64,000 nucleotides of DNA from an uncultured Planctomycetota bacterium (GCA_963823665.1 CAWGMQ010000002.1:32001-96000); one strand, 5' to 3'. Counted from the stretch's first letter, positions 50,119 through 60,202 are shown. Made by a program: numbers and translations. The notes: a model not told the origin generated them from the letters alone.

Positions 50119-51531
50119 TCAGAAAACCCGCGAAGCATGGATCCGCGGCAGGCCAGCCTTGGCCACACTCCCTTCCGGCATCGCATCGCGAATGCCACCC
50201 CGAAGCGCATCAATCATGTCTTCCTCCGGATGTCCATCAGCCGGAAAGTCAATCCACTCCCCTCCTCGTCGCTCCCGGCAATAATTCGCAAACGCCTCCT
50301 TCAATCGAATGCACCGCGGATGGATCGTCAGGCAGCCGGCATCCAGAAGCAATTCCATCATGTCCAGCCCGTCCAGCACCGGATGCTGCGGCCATCGCGC
50401 AACGAAACGCGAGCCGAAGACCCGCTCATATTCGCCGTAGGCAACTGGGCCCAGAGACGTCCGGGCCGACGACGCAGGGTCGAGCCTCACCAGGTCGATC
50501 CGGCCCCGGCAAGGCAGCTCATCCGCCTTCGCCTTGATGTCGAGTGCATTCTTGAGGCTCATCACGTCGACGGCGAGGTATTCGCCAAAGACAGTGACCC
50601 GCATCCGCTCGTTCGCCGAATCCCTGCGAACCTGGAAGAACACCGCCGCCGTGTGCCGCGATGTTCCCGCGTCGATCGCGCACCGTACGTGATACGCAGG
50701 GTGGTATTCAGCATCCACCGAAACGTGCCGCGCCGGGTCGAAGTTGGTGAACCACACACCGTCGGTCGTCTCCAGGAATTCCGCGTAGATCTCCTGCCTT
50801 CCCAGCCTCGTGTTCTCGTACAGCGTGACGATCTGAGTGACGAATTCCACCGGCAGATGGGCCTGGTTCGCGTAAGTGGTGTCGGTGGTCTGTACGGTCG
50901 TCGGCTCGGCCAGAATGCGTTTCAGCACGGCCAGCCGCCGCGGCGTGGTGGTGATGAGCGCCTGCGGATTGGCCCCGGCCCGCAGCGCCAGCATCACCAG
51001 CTCCCACATCGATTGAGCTCGCTGCCAGCACGCCAGCTCGTCGGCCCAGATGGTGTCGATGTTCAACCCGCGGGCGCGCTCGGGCTCCTCGCCGCTCAGG
51101 CAGATCGCGCGAGCCCCGTTGGGCCAGCTCACGCGTCGCTTTGAGGGCTCAAACTTGGGCCGCATCCACGGCGGCGCGACGTTGAGCAACCCCGAGGAAC
51201 CTTCGACCAGCACGTCGCGGATGTCGTTGGCGGTCGGGGCGATCAGGCAGCCGACCTTCATGGTGCCTTGTTCAACCCGCCGCTGAATCCACTCCGCTCC
51301 GGCCCGTGTCTTGCCCGCTCCGCGCCCGGCGACATAGCCCCACACCCGCCAGTTGCCCTCGGGCGGCCGCTGGGTTTGTCGCGCCCGCGGGTGCTTGCGG
51401 CACTCTCCCGCCCGCAGGTCGCACGGGCACGATTCTGCGTACCAGTCCCACGGGACGCGGTCGGTCACCTGTACCGGGTCCGGGCCCAAGCGGGCGTCAG
51501 CCCGCTTGACCCGCCATTCGATCTCGTTCAT
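50119..51531 (-). CDS. Phage terminase large subunit
   Basis: Walker A AGRGAGKT, PERARGL, Walker B IWADE, coupling motif ITTTP, RQEIYAEF, and C-terminal RNase H-like AIDAG...EDMIDALR. Confidence 0.88.
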   Translation of the reverse strand: MNEIEWRVKRADARLGPDPVQVTDRVPWDWYAESCPCDLRAGECRKHPRARQTQRPPEGNWRVWGYVAGRGAGKTRAGAEWIQRRVEQGTMKVGCLIAPTANDIRDVLVEGSSGLLNVAPPWMRPKFEPSKRRVSWPNGARAICLSGEEPERARGLNIDTIWADELACWQRAQSMWELVMLALRAGANPQALITTTPRRLAVLKRILAEPTTVQTTDTTYANQAHLPVEFVTQIVTLYENTRLGRQEIYAEFLETTDGVWFTNFDPARHVSVDAEYHPAYHVRCAIDAGTSRHTAAVFFQVRRDSANERMRVTVFGEYLAVDVMSLKNALDIKAKADELPCRGRIDLVRLDPASSARTSLGPVAYGEYERVFGSRFVARWPQHPVLDGLDMMELLLDAGCLTIHPRCIRLKEAFANYCRERRGGEWIDFPADGHPEEDMIDALRGGIRDAMPEGSVAKAGLPRIHASRVF

Positions 51532-51892
51532 CGAGCTTTTCCTCGATCTGTGTCATGCGCTCTTCCAGGCACGAAAACTTTGACACGGCCAACATGTCCC
51601 TGATGAGGGTCTTGATCGCCCCCAACCGAACTGACTCAGACTCGGCGTCCGCGGCCAGGACAACGAGCTTGGGTACTGCCCACGGCACGCGCTTGACCAT
51701 CATGCCGACTGCCCGATCGAGCATCCGGTGCCGGCACGCCTGCATCGCTTTGCGAACTTCCGGTTCCTTCGCCCACCGATAAACGGTTGGTCTGGGCACG
51801 TTGTTGTCTCGCGCCCATGCGGTGATCGAACGACCTTGCGCAAGTGCAACAGCGAGTTGCGCTTTCGTTCCTCTCTGCGTCTCGTCGCCCAT
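51497..51892 (-). CDS. HTH protein, putative terminase small subunit
   Basis: ALAQGRSITAWARDNNVPRPTVYRW HTH, helical body and coiled-coil end LEERMTQIEEKL; overlaps the terL start by 35 nt. Confidence 0.65.
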   Translation of the reverse strand: MGDETQRGTKAQLAVALAQGRSITAWARDNNVPRPTVYRWAKEPEVRKAMQACRHRMLDRAVGMMVKRVPWAVPKLVVLAADAESESVRLGAIKTLIRDMLAVSKFSCLEERMTQIEEKLDERDRMAGQAG

Positions 51893-52126
51893 GATAAAAA
51901 TGATAATCGGTGATGAATTTTTCACCGATTTTCCTCTTCGCCCGTCTCACGGTTCTCAGCCCCGGGCAGGCTGGCCGGCACACCCTCGTTCCGAGGGCCA
52001 GGTAAATGATTCTTCGAGATATTTGAGTCGCGCCTCGCTCGCGCCTGACGCTTGGACCATGGCCCGCGCGCCGATCCGCGACTGGAAACATCGCCCCTGG
52101 CCGGATAGGATGGGTGGTCGGACAAA

Positions 52127-53671
52127 ATGACCGATCGCCCCATCACGGGCGCTCACGTCTTGATGTTGACCGGTTTGGAGCAGCTCGCAACAATGTCTCG
52201 CCGCGATTCGAATCATCACAAACCGCCTCGATCGAATCGGCGGCCGAAAACGAATGCCAGGGCCGGCGGCTCGCGCTCTCGCCCGCCGGCACCAGCCGTT
52301 CCCGAGGCCCACTCGAAACAATCCCAAGAACACGACCGCGAGCGTCGCGGTCCCGGGCGTCGTCCCGATCGCGAATCCGGACCGGGAACGCTCGAGCGCG
52401 TTCAGAAAGTGCTGGCACATGCCGGCCTCGGCTCTCGTCGAAGTTGTGAAGAGCTGATCAGACAAGGGCGTGTTGCCATCGACGGGCAGGTCATTCGCGA
52501 GCTCGGCACTCGAGTTGACCCCGATAAAGCACGAATCACCGTTGATGGCGAAGCGATTCGCCGTGAGTCCATGGTGTATTACGCCGTCAACAAGCCCAAG
52601 GGATACGTTTCAACCAACGCCGATCCTGCTGGAAGACCCCGTGTCGTTGATCTCCTCCCGGAGATCCCCGAACGCGTCTACACGGTCGGTCGACTCGACG
52701 AGGAAAGCACCGGGTTGATGATCTTGACCAACGATGGCGAGTTGGCCAATCGGCTGGCTCATCCACGTTACGGTGTCGAGAAAGTGTACCGTGCGCTCAT
52801 CGCGGGTGCCCCTGATCAGGAGGTTCTTGCCAAGCTGACGGCCGGAGTTTGGCTCTCTGACGGCAAGATCCGCGCCAAGCGCGCCCGACTCGTCGGCCGC
52901 CAGGGCCAGGCCCATGTGCTCGAGCTCGTACTGGCCGAAGGAAAAAACCGCGAAATTCGTCGGATGTTGGCCAAGCTCGGGCACAAAGTGATGTCGCTGA
53001 GCCGCATTGCCGTAGGCCCCGTCAGCGGCAAGGGGCTCTCCAGTGGCGAACACCGTTCCCTCTCCCGGCACGAGGTCGATCTGCTTTGGAAGGTGGCTAA
53101 TGGTGCCGACGTATCGTTGCCACGGTTCCTCGATGGTGAATCCCAGCCCCGAGCTCGGGGTGATTCAAGGCGTCATCCCCAGCCCGGCGGCGGCCGTGGC
53201 CAGCGGAATAGACCCGGCTCACCGCAAGGACACCATGGCCAGTTCCGCCGCGAGACCGGCCCAACTCCTGGCTCAAAACAAAGCCGGCCGGCACTGTCAT
53301 CACACTCAACTCAATCTCCGCCTCCTCCGTCACACCGGCCGGATTCCGCGCCCCGAAACACGCGGCCGTCCCATGAACCAGCAGCCCGCAAGCCACCGAA
53401 CCGCGAGCGGTCCGGCGGTGCTCCGCGAACAGACAGGGCGAAGACGCTGAAGCACGCACCGGCAAGTTCCCGGCGCTCGGTAACCCCTGCGCCCATTCGC
53501 CGCATCATCGGCCTGGAGCCCCAGGCGCGACCGCAGCCGAACCCGCAATTCGAGCAAAAGCGCAGTCGCAAACGCCCCCCGCCCAGAACTTACCGCCGGT
53601 CCCCATCGCCGAAGGCGACGAAACAAACATTTCCATCCCCGCCGCCGCGCACTGTCGGTGAAGATGCATGA
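52127..53671 (+). CDS. rluB: RsuA/RluB family pseudouridine synthase with long low-complexity termini
   Basis: S4 domain (ERVQKVLAHAGLGSRR), NKPKGY, GRLD and EGKNREIRRM motifs. Confidence 0.88.
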   Translation: MTDRPITGAHVLMLTGLEQLATMSRRDSNHHKPPRSNRRPKTNARAGGSRSRPPAPAVPEAHSKQSQEHDRERRGPGRRPDRESGPGTLERVQKVLAHAGLGSRRSCEELIRQGRVAIDGQVIRELGTRVDPDKARITVDGEAIRRESMVYYAVNKPKGYVSTNADPAGRPRVVDLLPEIPERVYTVGRLDEESTGLMILTNDGELANRLAHPRYGVEKVYRALIAGAPDQEVLAKLTAGVWLSDGKIRAKRARLVGRQGQAHVLELVLAEGKNREIRRMLAKLGHKVMSLSRIAVGPVSGKGLSSGEHRSLSRHEVDLLWKVANGADVSLPRFLDGESQPRARGDSRRHPQPGGGRGQRNRPGSPQGHHGQFRRETGPTPGSKQSRPALSSHSTQSPPPPSHRPDSAPRNTRPSHEPAARKPPNRERSGGAPRTDRAKTLKHAPASSRRSVTPAPIRRIIGLEPQARPQPNPQFEQKRSRKRPPPRTYRRSPSPKATKQTFPSPPPRTVGEDA

Positions 53672-54528
53672 ATCCCCACTCATGCATATCGAGTCCCACC
53701 GCGACTGATCGCATGATTCGGATTTTGGAGAACGTCGCAATTGCTCGCGATACCTTTCGGCTGCGCCTGGATGACCCCGCGCTAGCCCAAGCGATCCGGC
53801 CCGGCCAGTTTGTCATGATCCGTCCGGGACTCGTGGATGCATCCGACCCGTTGCTGGGCAGGCCGCTCGCCCTCTACGACGTGGCTTGCTCCCGATCAGG
53901 CACGCCGGAATCGTTCGACGTCGTCTATCTGGTCGTAGGCCGTGGCACCGCCTCGCTTGCGCTCCGACGGCCCGGTGAGCAACTCGCCGTGTGGGGACCG
54001 CTGGGAAACGGGTTTGGCCCGCCGCCCGGCGGCCCTGTGTTATTCGTCGCCGGCGGTATCGGCCAGACGCCCTTTCTTGCCCTGGGCCGGTCCTGGCTGC
54101 GAGCGCGGGGCCCGGCGTCGTCGATCACTTTGCTTTACGGCGTGCGATCCGCGGCGTTCCTGGCGGGTGTCGAAGACTTCCGGCAAGCCGGTATCGAGGT
54201 CGAGCTCGCAACCGACGACGGGACGGCTGGCCATCACGGCTTCGTCACCGAGTTGCTGGCCCGTCGTCTTGCGGCTGGAGAGCGGCCGGCGAAGGTCGTC
54301 GGCTGCGGGCCGCCCGCGATGCTTGCTGCCCTGGCCAGGCTCGTTTCGAGTTATCGCATCCCCTGCGACGTCTCGCTCGAAAATCACATGGCCTGCGGCT
54401 TCGGCGCATGTTTCAGTTGCGTAGCCCCCATACGTAAAGATGATGGCGTACTCGACCTTCGACGCGTCTGCGTCGAGGGACCCGTTGTGCCGGCAGAACG
54501 CGTTGACTGGGCAGCCATGACCCACTGA
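53668..54528 (+). CDS. pyrK: Dihydroorotate dehydrogenase electron transfer subunit
   Basis: PGQFVM, GPLGNGF, AGGIG, CGP and MACGFGACFSC...VCVEGP motifs. Confidence 0.9.
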   Translation: MNPHSCISSPTATDRMIRILENVAIARDTFRLRLDDPALAQAIRPGQFVMIRPGLVDASDPLLGRPLALYDVACSRSGTPESFDVVYLVVGRGTASLALRRPGEQLAVWGPLGNGFGPPPGGPVLFVAGGIGQTPFLALGRSWLRARGPASSITLLYGVRSAAFLAGVEDFRQAGIEVELATDDGTAGHHGFVTELLARRLAAGERPAKVVGCGPPAMLAALARLVSSYRIPCDVSLENHMACGFGACFSCVAPIRKDDGVLDLRRVCVEGPVVPAERVDWAAMTH

Positions 54529-54586
54529 ATCGCCGCAGAGACGCCGACGTTGATCCGAAGCCGGGGAATAATACCCGCGCTCACAA

Positions 54587-55354
54587 TCAACCCTGCGACT
54601 CGGCCTTGATCAGATCGCGAAGCCTGGCTGCTAGCTCGTAATCTTCCCGCACCACCGCTTCCTCGAGTTGCTCACGCAGCGTTTTCCGTACGAGGAATCT
54701 CTCACGGACGTCCCGCTCGACCTTGCCGAGTCGCTCCACGAGCTTGGGCACGGGCGACTCGTCCGGGTCGTTCTCTTCCCACCAGACGCGTTGATGCGTG
54801 TTCAAACGATCGATACCCTCACGCAGCGCATCGACCGCCTCTTCCGGTCGTTTGCGTTCCAGCGCCATGGCAAAGCCGGCCTCCGCGCGGTGAAACAGAA
54901 CAATCGCCCGACACTGCTCGTGCGAGCCGATGTATTCTTCATCGATACCATGCCGCAATACGAAATCCATGAGCCCAAGGGTATGTTCGGCGTCCTGGAT
55001 CACCCGGTCATGCTTTCCGAGAAACCGCCAGGCAACCCGGCGATGATAGAACTGGATGAACTCTCGGTCCAGCTCGGCGCATTGTTCTGTCGACATCGAC
55101 CAGCGCACCACCTTGCTGCCGAGAGCATGCGCCCGACCGCTCGTGAGATGACGCAGATAGTCGAGATAGGTAACAAACCCATGCGGGCGCGCGCCGTCGG
55201 GTCTCCCGGTCACCTCGAGTTGAAGCACTCCAAGCTCGATGCGAACCTGCAAGACCTTCCGCCCGTCACCCGCCCGCCCCTCGCGAGCCACGTGTTCGCC
55301 CTTGGCTGGTTCATAAGGCCAGCTCCGGAGCAGCTCATCCAGGTCCGGTCGCAT
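54587..55354 (-). CDS. UvrB/UvrC (UVR) motif-containing protein
   Basis: C-terminal LEEAVVREDYELAARLRDLI; QVRIELGVLQLEVTGRPDG. Confidence 0.82.
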   Translation of the reverse strand: MRPDLDELLRSWPYEPAKGEHVAREGRAGDGRKVLQVRIELGVLQLEVTGRPDGARPHGFVTYLDYLRHLTSGRAHALGSKVVRWSMSTEQCAELDREFIQFYHRRVAWRFLGKHDRVIQDAEHTLGLMDFVLRHGIDEEYIGSHEQCRAIVLFHRAEAGFAMALERKRPEEAVDALREGIDRLNTHQRVWWEENDPDESPVPKLVERLGKVERDVRERFLVRKTLREQLEEAVVREDYELAARLRDLIKAESQG

Positions 55355-55448
55355 CAACTACTCCCTCGCGATCAAAGCGATTAAAGTCATTCTTGCAAAC
55401 CGACTGTACCTTCGTCATGATGGATTTCCCTATCGAGCGAGCGTTCCC

Positions 55449-55521
<73 letters not shown>

Positions 55522-56109
55522 TTTTCGACAAGAAGTGCAGGTGGTGCGTCCGAGCATCGAGGGTGATCCTTCGCCGATCGCACAGCTTCGTTGATCATTG
55601 CCGACTTCTGGAAATCCGAGATCGATCCACCCTTGGCCCATGATGCCACGACCGCGGATGGCCCACGCCCCTCCGCGGATTGATCAACAACGCGCAAAAG
55701 CAAAGGGGGCTCGGACTTCCGTCGCGTTTCAACGTTCTTCGACGATGGATCATTCTGATAGCAAAATGATAGCATATTATAAGCGATCTGCTCTTCCCGC
55801 TCGCGGTTCTCAGCTCGAGTCCCGAGTTCGCGTCTCAGGCTGTTTGGCCAGTCGCAAATTGACGCGATCCCAAGACCGAATTCCGAGCACCACCACGAAC
55901 AGTCGCTCAATCTTTTGAGAAAGCCGTGCGCAAGCGTGGCCCCAAGCGCCGCGGTGAGCCGCGCTTGGAGGGCACAGAACCGACCGGCGGTGCGGACAGA
56001 GCGTGATCTTGCGTTCATGATCGCCCCGGAGGGCTATTCGAGAGTTGCTGTCAACAACCGGATCGCCGATCCGTCAATCGACCGGACCGGCGAAGTCGGT
56101 GTTGCGCAA

Positions 56110-56283
56110 TCACTTGAGAGCATCAAGCTTCGAATGAGCCGACGCCGCGACCTGATTGACGCCAAACGCGGCAAGGAATGCCGTGAGCGCAGGTGTGACC
56201 TGGTCTGTCTTGCCCGCAGCAACGACATACAGCAGGTAGAGCCCCGCGACGACCGCGGGCCAGTAGCGCACCAGAGTTGACAT
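56110..56283 (-). CDS. 57-aa small membrane protein (holin-like), absent from the ORF track
   Basis: Manual translation MSTLVRYWPAVVAGLYLLYVVAAGKTDQVTPALTAFLAAFGVNQVAASAHSKLDALK*; AGGAG RBS 8 nt upstream; starts 11 nt after the protease stop. Confidence 0.65.
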   Translation of the reverse strand: MSTLVRYWPAVVAGLYLLYVVAAGKTDQVTPALTAFLAAFGVNQVAASAHSKLDALK

Positions 56284-56294
56284 TCAGGTGTCTC

Positions 56295-57053
56295 CTATTC
56301 GACAGTACGAATTGTCCAGAAATCGCTCGTCAGCGCACTTGTCATGTACGCATAAGGCAAATAGAAATACCCCCCATCCCCCCAGCTCGACCCCCACGAG
56401 TTTCGCACGGTAAACGTCGACGACGCGTCGTCGTAGCCGACAGCCATCACCGCATGGCCGCCGATCGCACGCTCAAACCAGTTCGGCATCGGCACATGCC
56501 CCGTTCGCGCGACGTAATCCGACTCGAAGCTCGCATAGACAGTGAAGCCGAAAACAAAGGGAAAGCCCGCCGCAAGGCAGCCGCGGAAATCGCTCAGATC
56601 CTGATTGACAGTCTCGTAAACGAGCGCCAGATGCTTGGAAGCATCGTCGTAGCACGCCGCCGGCGGCTGGACCGTGAACTGGCTGACGTCGTACGGCCAT
56701 TCCGTCTCAGGGCAATCACCCCACTGGGCTACACTCTTGATGCCGTCCCGGATCTGTGCACCTGAATCGGACCCGACGGTCCCTTCGATCGCGCGCTCAT
56801 TATAATAAATGAATAAGCGAGATGGTGTTGAAACCGGCAGCTTCTGGCGGGCCGCGTCGAACTCGAGTGCCGCTGCAATCGCATTCGCCGTGCAGCTTCC
56901 AAGTTCTCCCTGGTCATAAACCGGTGGACATTGTGCTCGCAGATCAACGGCCGGCGGAAGTCCGGCAGCCGCTTTAGCATTCTGCGCGAGTTGGAACTTT
57001 CGGTCTCGTTGATCCGGCAAGTCGCGGACCCACCCATACCTTCTTGTCGCCAT
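56295..57053 (-). CDS. C1A papain-family cysteine protease without signal peptide
   Basis: QGELGSCTANA (catalytic Cys), GGHAV (His) and RNSWG (Asn); start overlaps the upstream stop (TAATG). Confidence 0.92.
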   Translation of the reverse strand: MATRRYGWVRDLPDQRDRKFQLAQNAKAAAGLPPAVDLRAQCPPVYDQGELGSCTANAIAAALEFDAARQKLPVSTPSRLFIYYNERAIEGTVGSDSGAQIRDGIKSVAQWGDCPETEWPYDVSQFTVQPPAACYDDASKHLALVYETVNQDLSDFRGCLAAGFPFVFGFTVYASFESDYVARTGHVPMPNWFERAIGGHAVMAVGYDDASSTFTVRNSWGSSWGDGGYFYLPYAYMTSALTSDFWTIRTVE

Positions 57054-57361
57054 TATGGATAACTCCTGACGCATTGGATGCATTCCAAGGTGCTTACTTT
57101 CGCCCCGCAGCGCAGACCACACCGCGCACAACCGCATCCTCCGGCTTCGGTTGACCGGAACATGCAGTCGCGTACGGCGCGTGCCAGGGCTATGGACTCC
57201 GCCGCCGTCGGTCCGGGACGCGGCGGCTCCTTCGCCAATCGCTGCACCAGTGCCGAATACTCGGCACGAACTAGAGCATTGGGATGCTCGAGGCAGAGAT
57301 AGCGGTATCGTTCCACCCCGGTGCGGACGATGACCAGCTCGAGTGCTTCAACAAGTGTCAA
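57053..57361 (-). CDS. Small Cys-rich hypothetical protein
   Basis: C-terminal C...CGCARC...C...CIQC cluster; translationally coupled to the protease. Confidence 0.65.
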   Translation of the reverse strand: MTLVEALELVIVRTGVERYRYLCLEHPNALVRAEYSALVQRLAKEPPRPGPTAAESIALARAVRDCMFRSTEAGGCGCARCGLRCGAKVSTLECIQCVRSYP

Positions 57362-57390
57362 TGGAGAGGCGCAGCGCCGCTGAGCAAGCC

Positions 57391-57726
57391 TTACTTCGCT
57401 TCTCCGCCCTCGCCGGCGAAGGGCATTTCCCCGCCGTGCTGCTCCCCGGGCTTTTGATCGGGGGCCAGCCGACGACGGTTGAGCTCGGCGTCAACCCGTG
57501 CGAGTAGCTCGGCGTGCGCACGCATTTTTCCGCGAAAGATGTAGAGGGCGACCGCGCTGCCGAACATGGAGACGACGATCGAGACCATCCATTTCACGTC
57601 GTCGAATTGCAAGCCGACGACAGCCGTGGTCGCCGACGCCAGTGCAAGAAAATGCACCGCCCCGTACTTTTGGGATAACAACATGAGCGTCCCTATACCA
57701 CAATTCCCGATGTCGTTTTGGTCCAC
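57391..57726 (-). CDS. Small membrane protein (holin-like topology)
   Basis: One or two hydrophobic segments followed by a charged C-terminal tail; in operon after the portal-like gene. Confidence 0.55.
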   Translation of the reverse strand: MDQNDIGNCGIGTLMLLSQKYGAVHFLALASATTAVVGLQFDDVKWMVSIVVSMFGSAVALYIFRGKMRAHAELLARVDAELNRRRLAPDQKPGEQHGGEMPFAGEGGEAK

Positions 57727-57762
57727 AGTGTCGATCAGTCCCTGTCCCGGATCCGCTTCGAT

Positions 57763-59712
57763 CTACTCGACCGACGGAATCATGTTTCCGATCATCGTGC
57801 TCCCAGACTCTCCGGTTGGATCTTCGCCACCGGCTTGCTCGGGTGAGCCTCCCCCGGTAAAGGCCTCGGCCTGGCTTGAGATGCCTCCCGGCGCCCATTC
57901 ACTGGGCTGACCCGATGCAATCGACTTGGTCGCCAGCATCGAGTCGATCTCCTGGTCGAGAGCAACGTATTCCTCGTCCGACAGTCCTAGGAGAAGCTGG
58001 CGAATGATCGACTTGTACCCGAGACCTTCAGTCTGCGGCGCCGTTCCTGCCGACTTGAATGACTGCTGCATCCGCGTGAGGCCGTCAATGAGCTCGGAAG
58101 CGCTGAATAGCTCAAATCGCGCGGGATAGATCACCCTGATCGCCTCTCTCTCCGCCGACGTCACGGGGCGGCCGCGAAGAACCAGAAGCGCGAATTCGGC
58201 GATGAATCGTTCCGCGCGCGCCAGCGACTTCGCTATCGACCCGAGCAGCTTGTGCCCCGCCGCCGCGTCGAGCTGCTTGGAGATGCCCGACTGGGCCACG
58301 GTCCACCCGCCGTGACCCGCGCCGGAACCGGCCGCCACACCCGCCGGCTTGATGAGACACGCGCGTCGGTCCTTCATGTCGATGAGATCTTGCTTGTTCG
58401 TACGGAGCGAGGCGGCCGGGTCCTTCGGTGGGGATGTGTACTCCCAGCCTTCGTAGGCACCGCTCTCCGGGCTCTTTTTCTTCGGAAGAACGTAGCCGGG
58501 GCCAATCGACAGAGTGTTATCAGCCTTGCAATAATCCTCGGGCCCGGACAGGAGCGGATGAGCCTGCAAGGTGTCGGATAGGATCAGTTCGCTGTCCCTG
58601 TTGTAGTACTCTCGCTGCAGCTCCGCGATTGCTTCATACCGCGATTTCCCGATTGTCGGCGTGCGGTGCTTTTTCAAATCGATGAGACGAACGATCGGCA
58701 CCCGGCCGAACGAATGCGGAACCCGATCGATCACCTCGTCGCCGCTGAAGTTGTAGAGCACCGACTCGTCCGATTTCCAGTGCCGGTAGCGGACGTAGTT
58801 CTTCCGCCAGGCTTCGCCTATCTTACCGGGGTCATCCACGTCGACTACGGTCCCGTTGCTGTCGACATCGATCCGCGCCGACGGGTCTTGATATTCGCGG
58901 ACCAGGCATTCGACGTAGCGACCGGAATTATCGCACCGCCACCAGACCATATTCTGTGGCAGGATGTACGAGGCCACGCATTTGTCCAGACCGAGCCGAA
59001 GTTCGTCCGCTCTTGTCTCGATGCGTTCGCCGGGCGGGGCCATCGGGTGGTCCAGACAAATGTCGATGCAGCCGAGCACCAGCAAAAGAGGCGCGACGGT
59101 CTCCCGCATCCAGTCATCGATCGGCGTTCCCCGGCCGTCGACGTCTTTCCACCATTCCGCGAGATCAGCCGGTCCCGCGCGGGTGACCTCTTGGTCATAG
59201 ACCTTGCTCAGGTGAATCTCGACCGCCTCGGCCACGAATTCGGGCACCGGCGTCCGGGCTCGCCGCAGCTCGTAGTCATCATCCTGCGCAGTCGACGCTG
59301 GATCTGCCCCCAGCATGCCGGGATACGGCCCGAAACCGATGCTCTGGCCTTCACCGCTCACCGCGGCCAGGCCGCCGGCAAACCCGCCATAAACAACCGG
59401 GAATTGTTGCGGGTCCGGATACTCTCGCCGATGTCGGAATAAATTGCGACATGGCAGCCCCTTGCGATCGGGACCGTATACCGCGTTTCGATATCGGTCG
59501 CCCCCTTCGTAAGAGTCGAGCAGCCAGCGCCAGCGGATCTGATGCTCGAGAAAGTCGACATGCCGCCGCTGCACGACGGTCTTCCCATCCGTCTCCGCTT
59601 CGCCGGCAACGATTTTTGCCCGCGACTGATGTGTCTCCGCACTTGTGATCGACCCGTCCCGACCTGTGCCCAGGCCGGCAGACGGTGAGGTCCGCTGCAG
59701 GAAGTTCAACAT
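57763..59712 (-). CDS. Probable phage portal protein
   Basis: 649 aa; WLLDSYEGG..Y and YELRRAR...VAEAVE N-terminal patterns, HSFGRVPIV and QSGISKQLD recall SPP1-type/DUF4055 portals; acidic flexible tail. Recognised by eye only. Confidence 0.68.
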   Translation of the reverse strand: MLNFLQRTSPSAGLGTGRDGSITSAETHQSRAKIVAGEAETDGKTVVQRRHVDFLEHQIRWRWLLDSYEGGDRYRNAVYGPDRKGLPCRNLFRHRREYPDPQQFPVVYGGFAGGLAAVSGEGQSIGFGPYPGMLGADPASTAQDDDYELRRARTPVPEFVAEAVEIHLSKVYDQEVTRAGPADLAEWWKDVDGRGTPIDDWMRETVAPLLLVLGCIDICLDHPMAPPGERIETRADELRLGLDKCVASYILPQNMVWWRCDNSGRYVECLVREYQDPSARIDVDSNGTVVDVDDPGKIGEAWRKNYVRYRHWKSDESVLYNFSGDEVIDRVPHSFGRVPIVRLIDLKKHRTPTIGKSRYEAIAELQREYYNRDSELILSDTLQAHPLLSGPEDYCKADNTLSIGPGYVLPKKKSPESGAYEGWEYTSPPKDPAASLRTNKQDLIDMKDRRACLIKPAGVAAGSGAGHGGWTVAQSGISKQLDAAAGHKLLGSIAKSLARAERFIAEFALLVLRGRPVTSAEREAIRVIYPARFELFSASELIDGLTRMQQSFKSAGTAPQTEGLGYKSIIRQLLLGLSDEEYVALDQEIDSMLATKSIASGQPSEWAPGGISSQAEAFTGGGSPEQAGGEDPTGESGSTMIGNMIPSVE

Positions 59713-59794
59713 GATGATTAATAGTGAGTGAGATGCACCCCGCGCAACCTGTCACCGGGTACGTCCCCGATTCGGGCTGTCTGCGGATCGGTGC

Positions 59795-60202
59795 TTATCG
59801 TTGGTGGTTGGCAGTCGCAAGTTGTGGTTTAACGGCCGGAGTCGGTGGATCCGGGAACCTCGCCAGCTCCGCGAGCAACCCGTCGAGGCGATCGAGCACC
59901 GCAGTCGGATCCCGCACGGCTCGCAAATTGTCCAGCTCCGCGATGGCACGCCTGAGCCATCGCGCCGTGATATGTTCGTCTTTGTCCGGCCTTCGCTCGA
60001 AGTAACCCGATTCGACGAGCCCGATTAATCGCCTCGCGATGGCCGCCGCCCGTAACGGTGCGGACCCAGCTTTGATGTGGGGAGGACGGATGGCTGTCAT
60101 GTCTTGCTCGTGTAAGCGCCTCAATGTGTGAGTCATCCTCCATGACACTCCCGCGCACTTCGCGGACACCTCTTGGCCGGTTTCGATCGCGAGGGCAATC
60201 AC
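59795..60202 (-). CDS. Hypothetical protein upstream of the portal-like gene; start uncertain
   Basis: Co-oriented ORF with amphipathic helical character. Confidence 0.45.
   Translation of the reverse strand: MIALAIETGQEVSAKCAGVSWRMTHTLRRLHEQDMTAIRPPHIKAGSAPLRAAAIARRLIGLVESGYFERRPDKDEHITARWLRRAIAELDNLRAVRDPTAVLDRLDGLLAELARFPDPPTPAVKPQLATANHQR

Follow-up and report, generated by a model that had tools for sequence, protein, structure and literature searches.

A candidate gene transfer agent-like system, encoded at several loci, in an uncultured planctomycete and its family Isosphaeraceae

The window, a stretch of 64,000 nucleotides from the genome of an uncultured planctomycete (G000), carries two groups of phage-type genes set among housekeeping genes (Table 1). 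A terminase pair, preceded by a predicted structured RNA leader, lies between aguA and rluB, and an operon containing a portal gene lies about 6 kb away. The genes aguA, rluB and pyrK, the gene for a UVR-domain protein and the tRNA-Lys gene are all found where the first-pass annotation placed them.

Table 1. Features of the packaging loci in the window of G000 (positions counted from the first nucleotide of the window)
Feature	Position	Strand	Remarks
TerL	50119..51531	-	470 aa, uninterrupted; chimeric by alignment, class A
TerS-like HTH protein	51497..51892	-	131 aa counted from ATG; start 51925 according to the ORF tool
Predicted structured RNA leader	51925..52002	-	hairpin, short stem, covarying stem, pseudoknot; common with the capsid-gene leader
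Host genes rluB, pyrK, UVR-domain protein	52127..55357		outside the packaging system
tRNA-Lys(CTT)	55449..55521	+	likely rearrangement breakpoint
Papain-like C1 peptidase	56295..57137	-	PF00112, phrog_16701; same orientation as portal
102-aa protein without assigned function	57053..57361	-	conserved in G001
Small protein with one hydrophobic stretch	57391..57726	-	holin-like by size only
Portal	57763..59712	-	649 aa; one copy only in the genome; ortholog of the family module's portal
135-aa ORF without assigned function	59795..60202	-	upstream of portal; among the loci compared, elsewhere only in G001

The terL gene was recognised by profile searches (PF03237, E 3.5e-25; phrog_2, E 1.6e-24). 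Its product retains GRGAGKT, D164/E165 and the acidic residues D287, D438 and D441, which we take to be the Walker A, Walker B and nuclease positions, respectively, and an alignment with 11 relatives shows both the ATPase and the nuclease motifs to be conserved. The adjoining HTH gene overlaps terL by 35 nt, so that the pair is as first described, an HTH gene overlapping an uninterrupted TerL with all its motifs. The HTH protein matched the small-terminase family phrog_2538 (E 8.9e-9) and, at residues 20-53 of its 142-aa ORF form, HTH_23 (E 6e-5); counted from the ATG, it has the length of several homologues. Its naming as TerS-like rests on the phrog_2538 match and on position. The portal, previously called portal-like, matched phrog_145 (profile E 1.1e-31), and its fold was confirmed with an AlphaFold model (pLDDT 62), for which all listed Foldseek hits were portals or portal-containing assemblies (best E 1e-10). 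Searches of PDB sequences with the portal and TerL gave weak matches only (E 0.15-0.7). The C1 peptidase has a weak homologue in a related prophage-like locus (L302) and possibly has a role in lysis.

PHROG scans of the 48 ORFs of the window detected no capsid, tail, integrase, repressor or replication gene, as already noted in the first-pass annotation, and neither a GTA model nor a phage-head model of NCBIfam was matched. The missing capsid, for which the first-pass annotation advised a search of the rest of the genome, was found on another contig of G000 (C8), together with a scaffold gene, an adaptor-like gene and large fibre-like genes. The capsid is of the SU10 type (PF17236) and matched one phage capsid, 9in6, among the PDB sequences (E 9e-18); the adaptor-like gene resembles Mu gp36, a likeness to be taken as a lead. 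In all, G000 encodes one portal, two full TerLs and a truncated one, the latter on C8, and 9-11 TerS-like genes. In G001, a second species of the genus, an unbroken capsid gene occupies the same contig as the portal, ~390 kb away, and the split is thus a physical one. The ORFs scanned from the modules included no recognisable gene for lysis, a tail tube or a tape measure, and no replication or integration module was found in those from the window and parts of four modules.

The head genes are widespread in Isosphaeraceae. A capsid profile matched 90 of 121 genomes of the family, including 37 of the 47 high-quality genomes and 42 of 53 genera; the capsid-negative genomes number 31, ten of them among the 47 good ones. 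Outside the family, only four weak hits were obtained among 300 other genomes of the phylum. The capsid is mostly single-copy, with a second locus in about six genomes, and co-occurs with the portal (the same 16 of 24 family genomes). A set of 69 capsid loci came mostly from Isosphaeraceae or Planctomycetota records, including Tautonia sociabilis, Tautonia sp. JC769 and Tundrisphaera TA3. The usual order is terS-terL-portal-scaffold-capsid-(small gene)-adaptor-(variable fn3/Gp80 fibre genes)-c7, over ~8-14 kb, and in 19 of the 69 loci the host flank ppa-rmlD-cvpA-S4-pfk-egtD is present, whole or in part, upstream of the module; the remaining loci are short or have a different flank. Loci of the cultured T. 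sociabilis and Tundrisphaera TA3 are among those with this fixed flank. The terS of a compact module also gives a weak HTH hit, and no phage integrase or replication gene was seen in the compact modules scanned. Absence or pseudogenisation in close relatives, named beforehand as evidence against domestication, was not what these genomes displayed, and the layout of the window is common to the sister species G001.

Related free phages exist among IMG/VR contigs, and one locus, G013:C69, appears to be a true prophage of the same family, having an intein in its TerL and numerous small early genes. The planctomycete SU10-type phages and prophages (G013:C69 and IMG/VR loci L210-L248) have the same terL-portal-scaffold-capsid set, but stand on branches separate from the host modules. 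Several IMG/VR contigs nested in host-tracking clades are probably chromosomal modules that were called viral.

The inheritance of the module was followed in 55 genomes having both markers, the capsid+portal pair and RpoB (in G110, with two copies, the syntenic one was used). The capsid+portal tree had 28 of 52 splits in common with that of RpoB, as against a random mean of 0.19 and maximum of 3, and recovered 19 of the 23 strong RpoB splits, with three strong conflicts; a recommended comparison of gene and species trees thus came out in favour of congruence. In the clade of G000 all five strong splits were recovered and the Mantel correlation was 0.85, the overall Mantel rho being only 0.31. 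The largest conflict involves the genera g17 and g66, which have a separate module lineage nearer to viral contigs that is internally host-tracking (3/3). Second copies, plus those of G013 and G024, cluster with IMG/VR contigs. The head module is likely inherited by descent, as judged from these trees.

Between G000 and G001, dN/dS was 0.15 for terL, 0.10 for the portal, 0.45 for terS, 0.08 for the C1 peptidase and 0.19 for the small protein with a hydrophobic stretch, compared with 0.12-0.30 for the host neighbours. Family medians, from 13-19 usable pairs of 20, were 0.11-0.12 for ATPase, nuclease, portal and capsid and 0.20 for the adaptor-like gene; being Nei-Gojobori estimates on GC-rich genes, all these values are rough. 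They lie around 0.1, and neither a dN/dS near 1 nor nesting among active prophages, the pattern that would have spoken against the first proposal, was found for the host modules. Purifying selection is reported for defective prophages as well. Domestication of the module is strongly supported by these findings taken together: its spread through the family, the agreement of its tree with that of the host, purifying selection, the fixed host locus, and capsid genes located elsewhere in the genome.

Domestication rather than a recent prophage was also the preference of the first-pass annotation, and that part stands; its account of a packaging set split locally had to be corrected, since terS and terL form a mobile cassette that was inserted on its own, and the portal was relocated independently of the head module. 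On the coding strand terS-terL lies downstream of the portal, so that the order is not that of a canonical terL-portal pair pushed apart, and the idea of such a pair split by inserted housekeeping genes was rejected both for this wrong order and for the empty site in relatives. The aguA and rluB genes are separated by 339 bp in G073 and by 436 bp in G015, compared with ~2.3 kb in G000, which shows the cassette there to be a separate insertion; aguA-rluB is its insertion site in G000, and in five other relatives 1.8-11 kb of DNA lies between the two genes. The portal-side operon was not beside this tRNA-Lys in any of the ten relatives searched, in which synteny breaks at that point, and no attachment-site repeat of the tRNA gene was found within the window. 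The nearness of terminase and portal is therefore likely a coincidence, a by-product of later rearrangement at the tRNA gene.

Most modules encode a TerL of a different class, B, with which the window protein (class A) aligns over residues 255-470 only. Residues 50-262 of the latter resemble the TerLs of unrelated phages (up to 47%; 42% for the ATPase against Dinoroseobacter phage R5C), and among 118 phage records there is none with coverage of 80% of the protein. The accessible text of PMC7947584 lists a Dinoroseobacter vB_DshS phage among the viruses with GTA-related TerLs. By these alignments the window TerL is a chimera, in which a foreign phage-type ATPase (about residues 50-262) is joined to the nuclease and C-terminus of the resident module (about 255-470). 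In a tree from FastTree only, the class A nucleases are united in a single clade (support 0.97), which joins the class B nucleases found in the same host clade (0.96, with one long viral branch inside). An exact-word search of IMG/VR with the chimeric TerL, of low sensitivity, returned one locus, matched in the nuclease part only.

The module itself occurs in several states, from which we infer a temporal order: complete with a class B TerL; with class A in place of class B (G015); with terL gone or reduced (G073, G066, G088, G072, G021 and G008, all six of which have class A elsewhere); and with the portal gone as well (G000 and G001).

The terS of the cassette is preceded, ~35 nt upstream of its start codon, by an 80-nt motif, and a profile built from terS leaders alone also matched directly before the capsid gene in modules of the clade of G000. 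From 90 pattern hits, 50 preceding terS, the capsid gene or c42 were aligned; near-identical copies from G008, overlapping duplicates and hits in unrelated contexts were dropped. The proposed structure was paired in 94.5% of cells compared with 71.8% in shuffles, and two-sided changes occurred at all four variable-stem pairs and all five pseudoknot pairs (slid controls at most 43%; second count independent), figures that are uncorrected for relatedness, that come from the same sequences from which the structure was read, and that include one invariant 3-bp stem. G-U pairs alternate with standard pairs, which favours an RNA on this strand. Single-strand folding did not stand out (z from -1.5 to +1.3), in keeping with a pseudoknot, so that support for the leader comes from covariation only. 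Neither the window copy nor a capsid-leader copy had a relevant match in Rfam at the gathering score, and an initial likeness to TPP, c-di-GMP and HDV-type RNAs was dropped for lack of any Rfam hit.

The leader model had hits in 31 of 121 genomes, which almost coincide with those carrying class A TerL. Among 150 hits listed, with 120 more beyond them, 77 preceded a terS-like gene and 16 a capsid gene, and the other 57 were not assigned to a gene. The three hits of G000 precede the two intact cassettes and the capsid gene, and the leader was absent at its seven solo terS-like copies and in the compact modules tested. In viral contigs the pattern scan gave 35 hits, of which only four exceeded 40 bits with the model. 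As a predicted structure held in common by cassettes and capsid genes, the leader shows common origin and suggests co-regulation of the scattered genes, although it may simply have been carried along with the cassette.

The cassette behaves as a mobile element in the clade. Of the 121 genomes, 30 have class A TerL, at 1-7 matches per genome when frameshifted pieces are counted apart, and 35 have TerS-like genes, for which the number of matches reaches 25. Cassette flanks are common almost only within a genus, the sites being unrelated between genera, and the class A copies of g17 group beside the genus of G000, against the host tree, which by tree position suggests transfer between genera. G008 has near-identical cassette copies with ragged ends. 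Apart from the RNA leader, the G000 cassettes have no terminal repeats or common flanks outside the coding region except at orthologous sites. All of this would agree with a cassette that is a selfish passenger of a host-kept head module, its TerS marking its own DNA and its chimeric TerL loading the host capsid, as the TerS of phage-inducible chromosomal islands (PICIs) redirects packaging in lateral transduction, according to the part of PMC12829572 consulted. This explanation seems unlikely to us, since both G000 cassettes have stayed at the same sites as in G001 since the split of the two species, under purifying selection, and there is no other full TerL in G000, so that the host system would depend on the cassettes. 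Its further element, spread to new sites and genera with neither integrase nor transposase, is likewise doubtful: the route of integration is left unexplained, and many of the G008 copies have long common flanks and may be riding in a larger repeat.

Vertical inheritance and the selection data would also be expected had the module been domesticated for a role other than transfer, such as phage interference by decoy capsids or redirected packaging, a store of DNA-repair templates, or a protein container. The smallest modules, which stop two or three genes past the capsid with no recognised tail, the failure to find a lysis gene and the existence of related free phages all point in this direction. 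Such a role is nevertheless improbable, given that the terminase ATPase and nuclease residues, the portal and the adaptor-like gene have been kept together and that the fn3/Gp80 fibre-like genes vary between genomes as receptor-binding parts would.

Very unlikely is that these loci are decaying, shuffled relics of repeatedly acquired prophages of one family and that the G000 system is dead. In G000 the capsid gene is interrupted by 1-bp insertions, its leader copy departs from the consensus, terL on C8 is truncated, and the module there has IS elements and a 119-aa integrase fragment in its flanks; the separate g17+g66 lineage and the second copies clustering with viral contigs would also suit such relics. 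Against this stand the RpoB congruence across dozens of genera, the fixed host site, the single copy, dN/dS values equal to those of housekeeping genes, and genes left intact after moving hundreds of kb apart. The frameshift is plausibly an assembly error, since rpoB is likewise split in the G000 assembly; as the leader copy before the capsid is also deviant, it may instead reflect decay in this one genome. An assembly or binning artefact as the source of the layout is scarcely credible, for although G000 has two 1-bp indel differences from near-identical public contigs and a split rpoB, and the public contigs aligned to the interval are short, mostly from relatives and never span it, the independently assembled G001 is collinear from ~41 kb to past the end of the window, with identical gene order at 82-86% identity, which shows the layout to be real and largely refutes misassembly.

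We therefore favour, with moderate confidence, a multi-locus, GTA-like system of independent origin. By the genomic criteria applied to GTAs, as given in the consulted part of PMC9662315, the planctomycete system is GTA-like: its head and packaging genes are derived from Caudoviricetes, and they show vertical transmission and purifying selection (the G000 capsid gene being frameshifted). The same source, in the part seen, describes RcGTA and the other alphaproteobacterial GTAs (Rhodogtaviriformidae) as having phage-derived packaging and head genes that are vertically inherited and encoded at several loci, as here, and, together with the portion consulted of PMC11841831, it presents a multi-locus layout as typical of GTAs. 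Compared with the RcGTA family by gene content and description rather than directly by protein, the planctomycete system has an SU10-type capsid (PF17236), a phrog_145 portal, a scaffold instead of a recognised prohead protease, an HTH TerS, several mobile terS-terL cassettes and an RNA leader, and has no recognised tail tube or tape measure. Membership in Rhodogtaviriformidae was rejected on the capsid type, the scaffold, the lack of a recognised tail tube and tape measure, and the planctomycete hosts. Characterised GTA TerS proteins have no N-terminal DNA-binding domain, according to the available part of PMC11841831, and the TerS of the window, which keeps its HTH, differs from them in this respect.

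In the BhGTA (VSH-1) of Brachyspira, terL is encoded apart from the structural cluster and has diversified along with the host, as reported in the same accessible part of PMC9662315. That terL is single-copy, whereas the planctomycete one is chimeric by alignment, multi-copy and moves between genera; the likeness drawn here is one of layout. Lateral transduction by PICI/SaPI elements, as far as the portion consulted of PMC12829572 describes it, uses a separate TerS that redirects packaging to chromosomal sites, as proposed here. The cassette has no integrase, replication gene or att site and brings its own TerL, and its helper would be a host-inherited module rather than an inducible phage. 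Classification as a PICI or satellite was rejected, the cassette consisting of terS-terL and a leader only, with no repeats or att site, and so was that as an intact prophage, there being no contiguous genome with integrase, repressor, replication and lysis genes.

The presumed starting state of the proposed GTA-like system is the compact terS-terL-portal-scaffold-capsid-adaptor module, which is present in most genomes of the family and tracks the host tree, and in the large-genome clade a chimeric TerL, with new ATPase and resident nuclease and C-terminus, is observed with an HTH TerS at many unrelated sites. In lambda-like phages, the C-termini of TerL dock on portals. The retained C-terminus would likewise dock on the resident portal, thus making the terL of the module dispensable and allowing its repeated loss; in the genus of G000 the portal would have moved too. 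Exchange of the ATPase and TerS with retention of the nuclease and C-terminus would change the packaged DNA and preserve docking. The structured leader may place the scattered genes under joint control, probably at the level of translation, given that the end of the pseudoknot is often found immediately ahead of a GGAG ribosome-binding site. The scattered terminase and portal would likely assemble with the scaffold and capsid encoded elsewhere into particles packaging host DNA. If established phage biology is applied to the genes found, the prohead would be nucleated by scaffold and portal and filled by TerS-TerL with the host DNA that they cut, the adaptor and fibres serving to close and direct the particle. 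As TerS keeps its HTH, packaging would likely start at preferred sites: headful packaging would begin at or near the terS copies, and the packaged DNA would be biased to those sites rather than random. A tentative extension is that a selfish element of RNA leader, terS and chimeric terL took over the packaging of an independently evolved Isosphaeraceae GTA and became an essential satellite of it. Equally speculative is that such an element seeded packaging start sites, made the original terminase dispensable and brought a coordinating pseudoknot regulator.

A literature search, with most subscription papers and all supplements outside its reach, found no description of a planctomycete GTA or of this pseudoknot leader. 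In the accessible text of PMC7947584, planctomycetes are mentioned only for a Zavarzinella prophage, and that of PMC13092639 mentions unspecified phage genes in four planctomycete strains. The 11.5-kb 'incomplete prophage' with head, capsid and tail genes in one Isosphaeraceae metagenome-assembled genome, given in the part consulted of PMC8597652, may be the same module. Reviews note that GTAs are difficult to detect outside Alphaproteobacteria and that it is not known how common they are (PMC11841831, as available in part).

The genes described here thus indicate a candidate new GTA lineage with two new features, namely a clade-specific mobile terminase that is chimeric by alignment, and a predicted, uncatalogued pseudoknot leader with no Rfam match. 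It is a family-wide GTA candidate in Planctomycetota, with T. sociabilis and Tundrisphaera TA3 as cultured carriers. Its covarying pseudoknot leader is associated with capsid and terminase genes, and the module would illustrate the stepwise break-up of a phage module under continuing selection, in which the terminase was replaced, terL lost and the portal moved. For the 10-16 Mb genomes of the clade of G000, such a system may provide a route of gene exchange.

The predicted pseudoknotted RNA leader that precedes the terS-terL cassettes and the capsid gene is not confined to these positions. A search with the leader model found 21-38 copies per genome in four Isosphaeraceae genomes (G070, G069, G071 and G072), many of them not adjoining a terS or capsid gene among those listed, and two head modules carry a second copy (see table). 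The weak match near the UVR gene in the window is possibly a leader remnant. CGGTG...CACCG stems similar to the further hairpin of the window cassette are present in several other cassettes.

Genome G008 contains about 25 terS-like matches (L404-L417 among the loci). Most of the 14 copies examined belong to two families of near-identical sequence; these copies share flanking sequence over several hundred bases and have ragged ends, as if a small repeat or mobile unit had recently multiplied. The extra terL(A)-portal pair of G001, another species of the genus, has neither scaffold nor capsid alongside, and the TerL of the G013 prophage is a protein of 1216 aa with intein and LAGLIDADG domains.

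One base at window 53015, in the long low-complexity tail of rluB, is absent from a near-identical public contig and is possibly an assembly error. Head-module loci L168, L170, L171, L178 and L205 are titled as other taxa (Ca. Kuenenia, Geminicoccaceae, Alcaligenaceae and Alphaproteobacteria); L170 carries the pfk-egtD flank known from Isosphaeraceae modules, and thus some of these five are likely mislabelled or mis-binned.

Additional features in the window and in related genomes
Feature	Location	Strand	Remarks
Unannotated gene run	G000:C8:2017324-2025231 (L128, L018)		window's own genome; downstream of head module
Unannotated gene run	L192:13441-19902		downstream of head module
GT2 glycosyltransferase gene	L085:5739-6629		between portal and scaffold
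Second leader copy	L143:13808-13886		inside head module, before gene c42
Second leader copy	L213:13942-14020		inside head module, before gene c42
Weak partial match to leader 3' half	window 55796-55823	-	upstream of UVR gene; E 0.09
Further hairpin, AATCGGTGA...TCACCGATT	window 51897-51925	-	between leader and terS start
Extra terL(A)-portal pair	G001:C18:398660-401965 (L079/L080)		terL frameshifted
Prophage	G013:C69 (L090)		same family as head module

The gene run downstream of the head module occurs in several genera, with products of about 139, 101, 136, 196-240 and 700-770 aa. The genes of the two tabulated runs had no match in Pfam or PHROG, and they are candidate tail or delivery genes. 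In most modules of the large-genome clade a GT2 glycosyltransferase gene lies between portal and scaffold, and its product may glycosylate the capsid.
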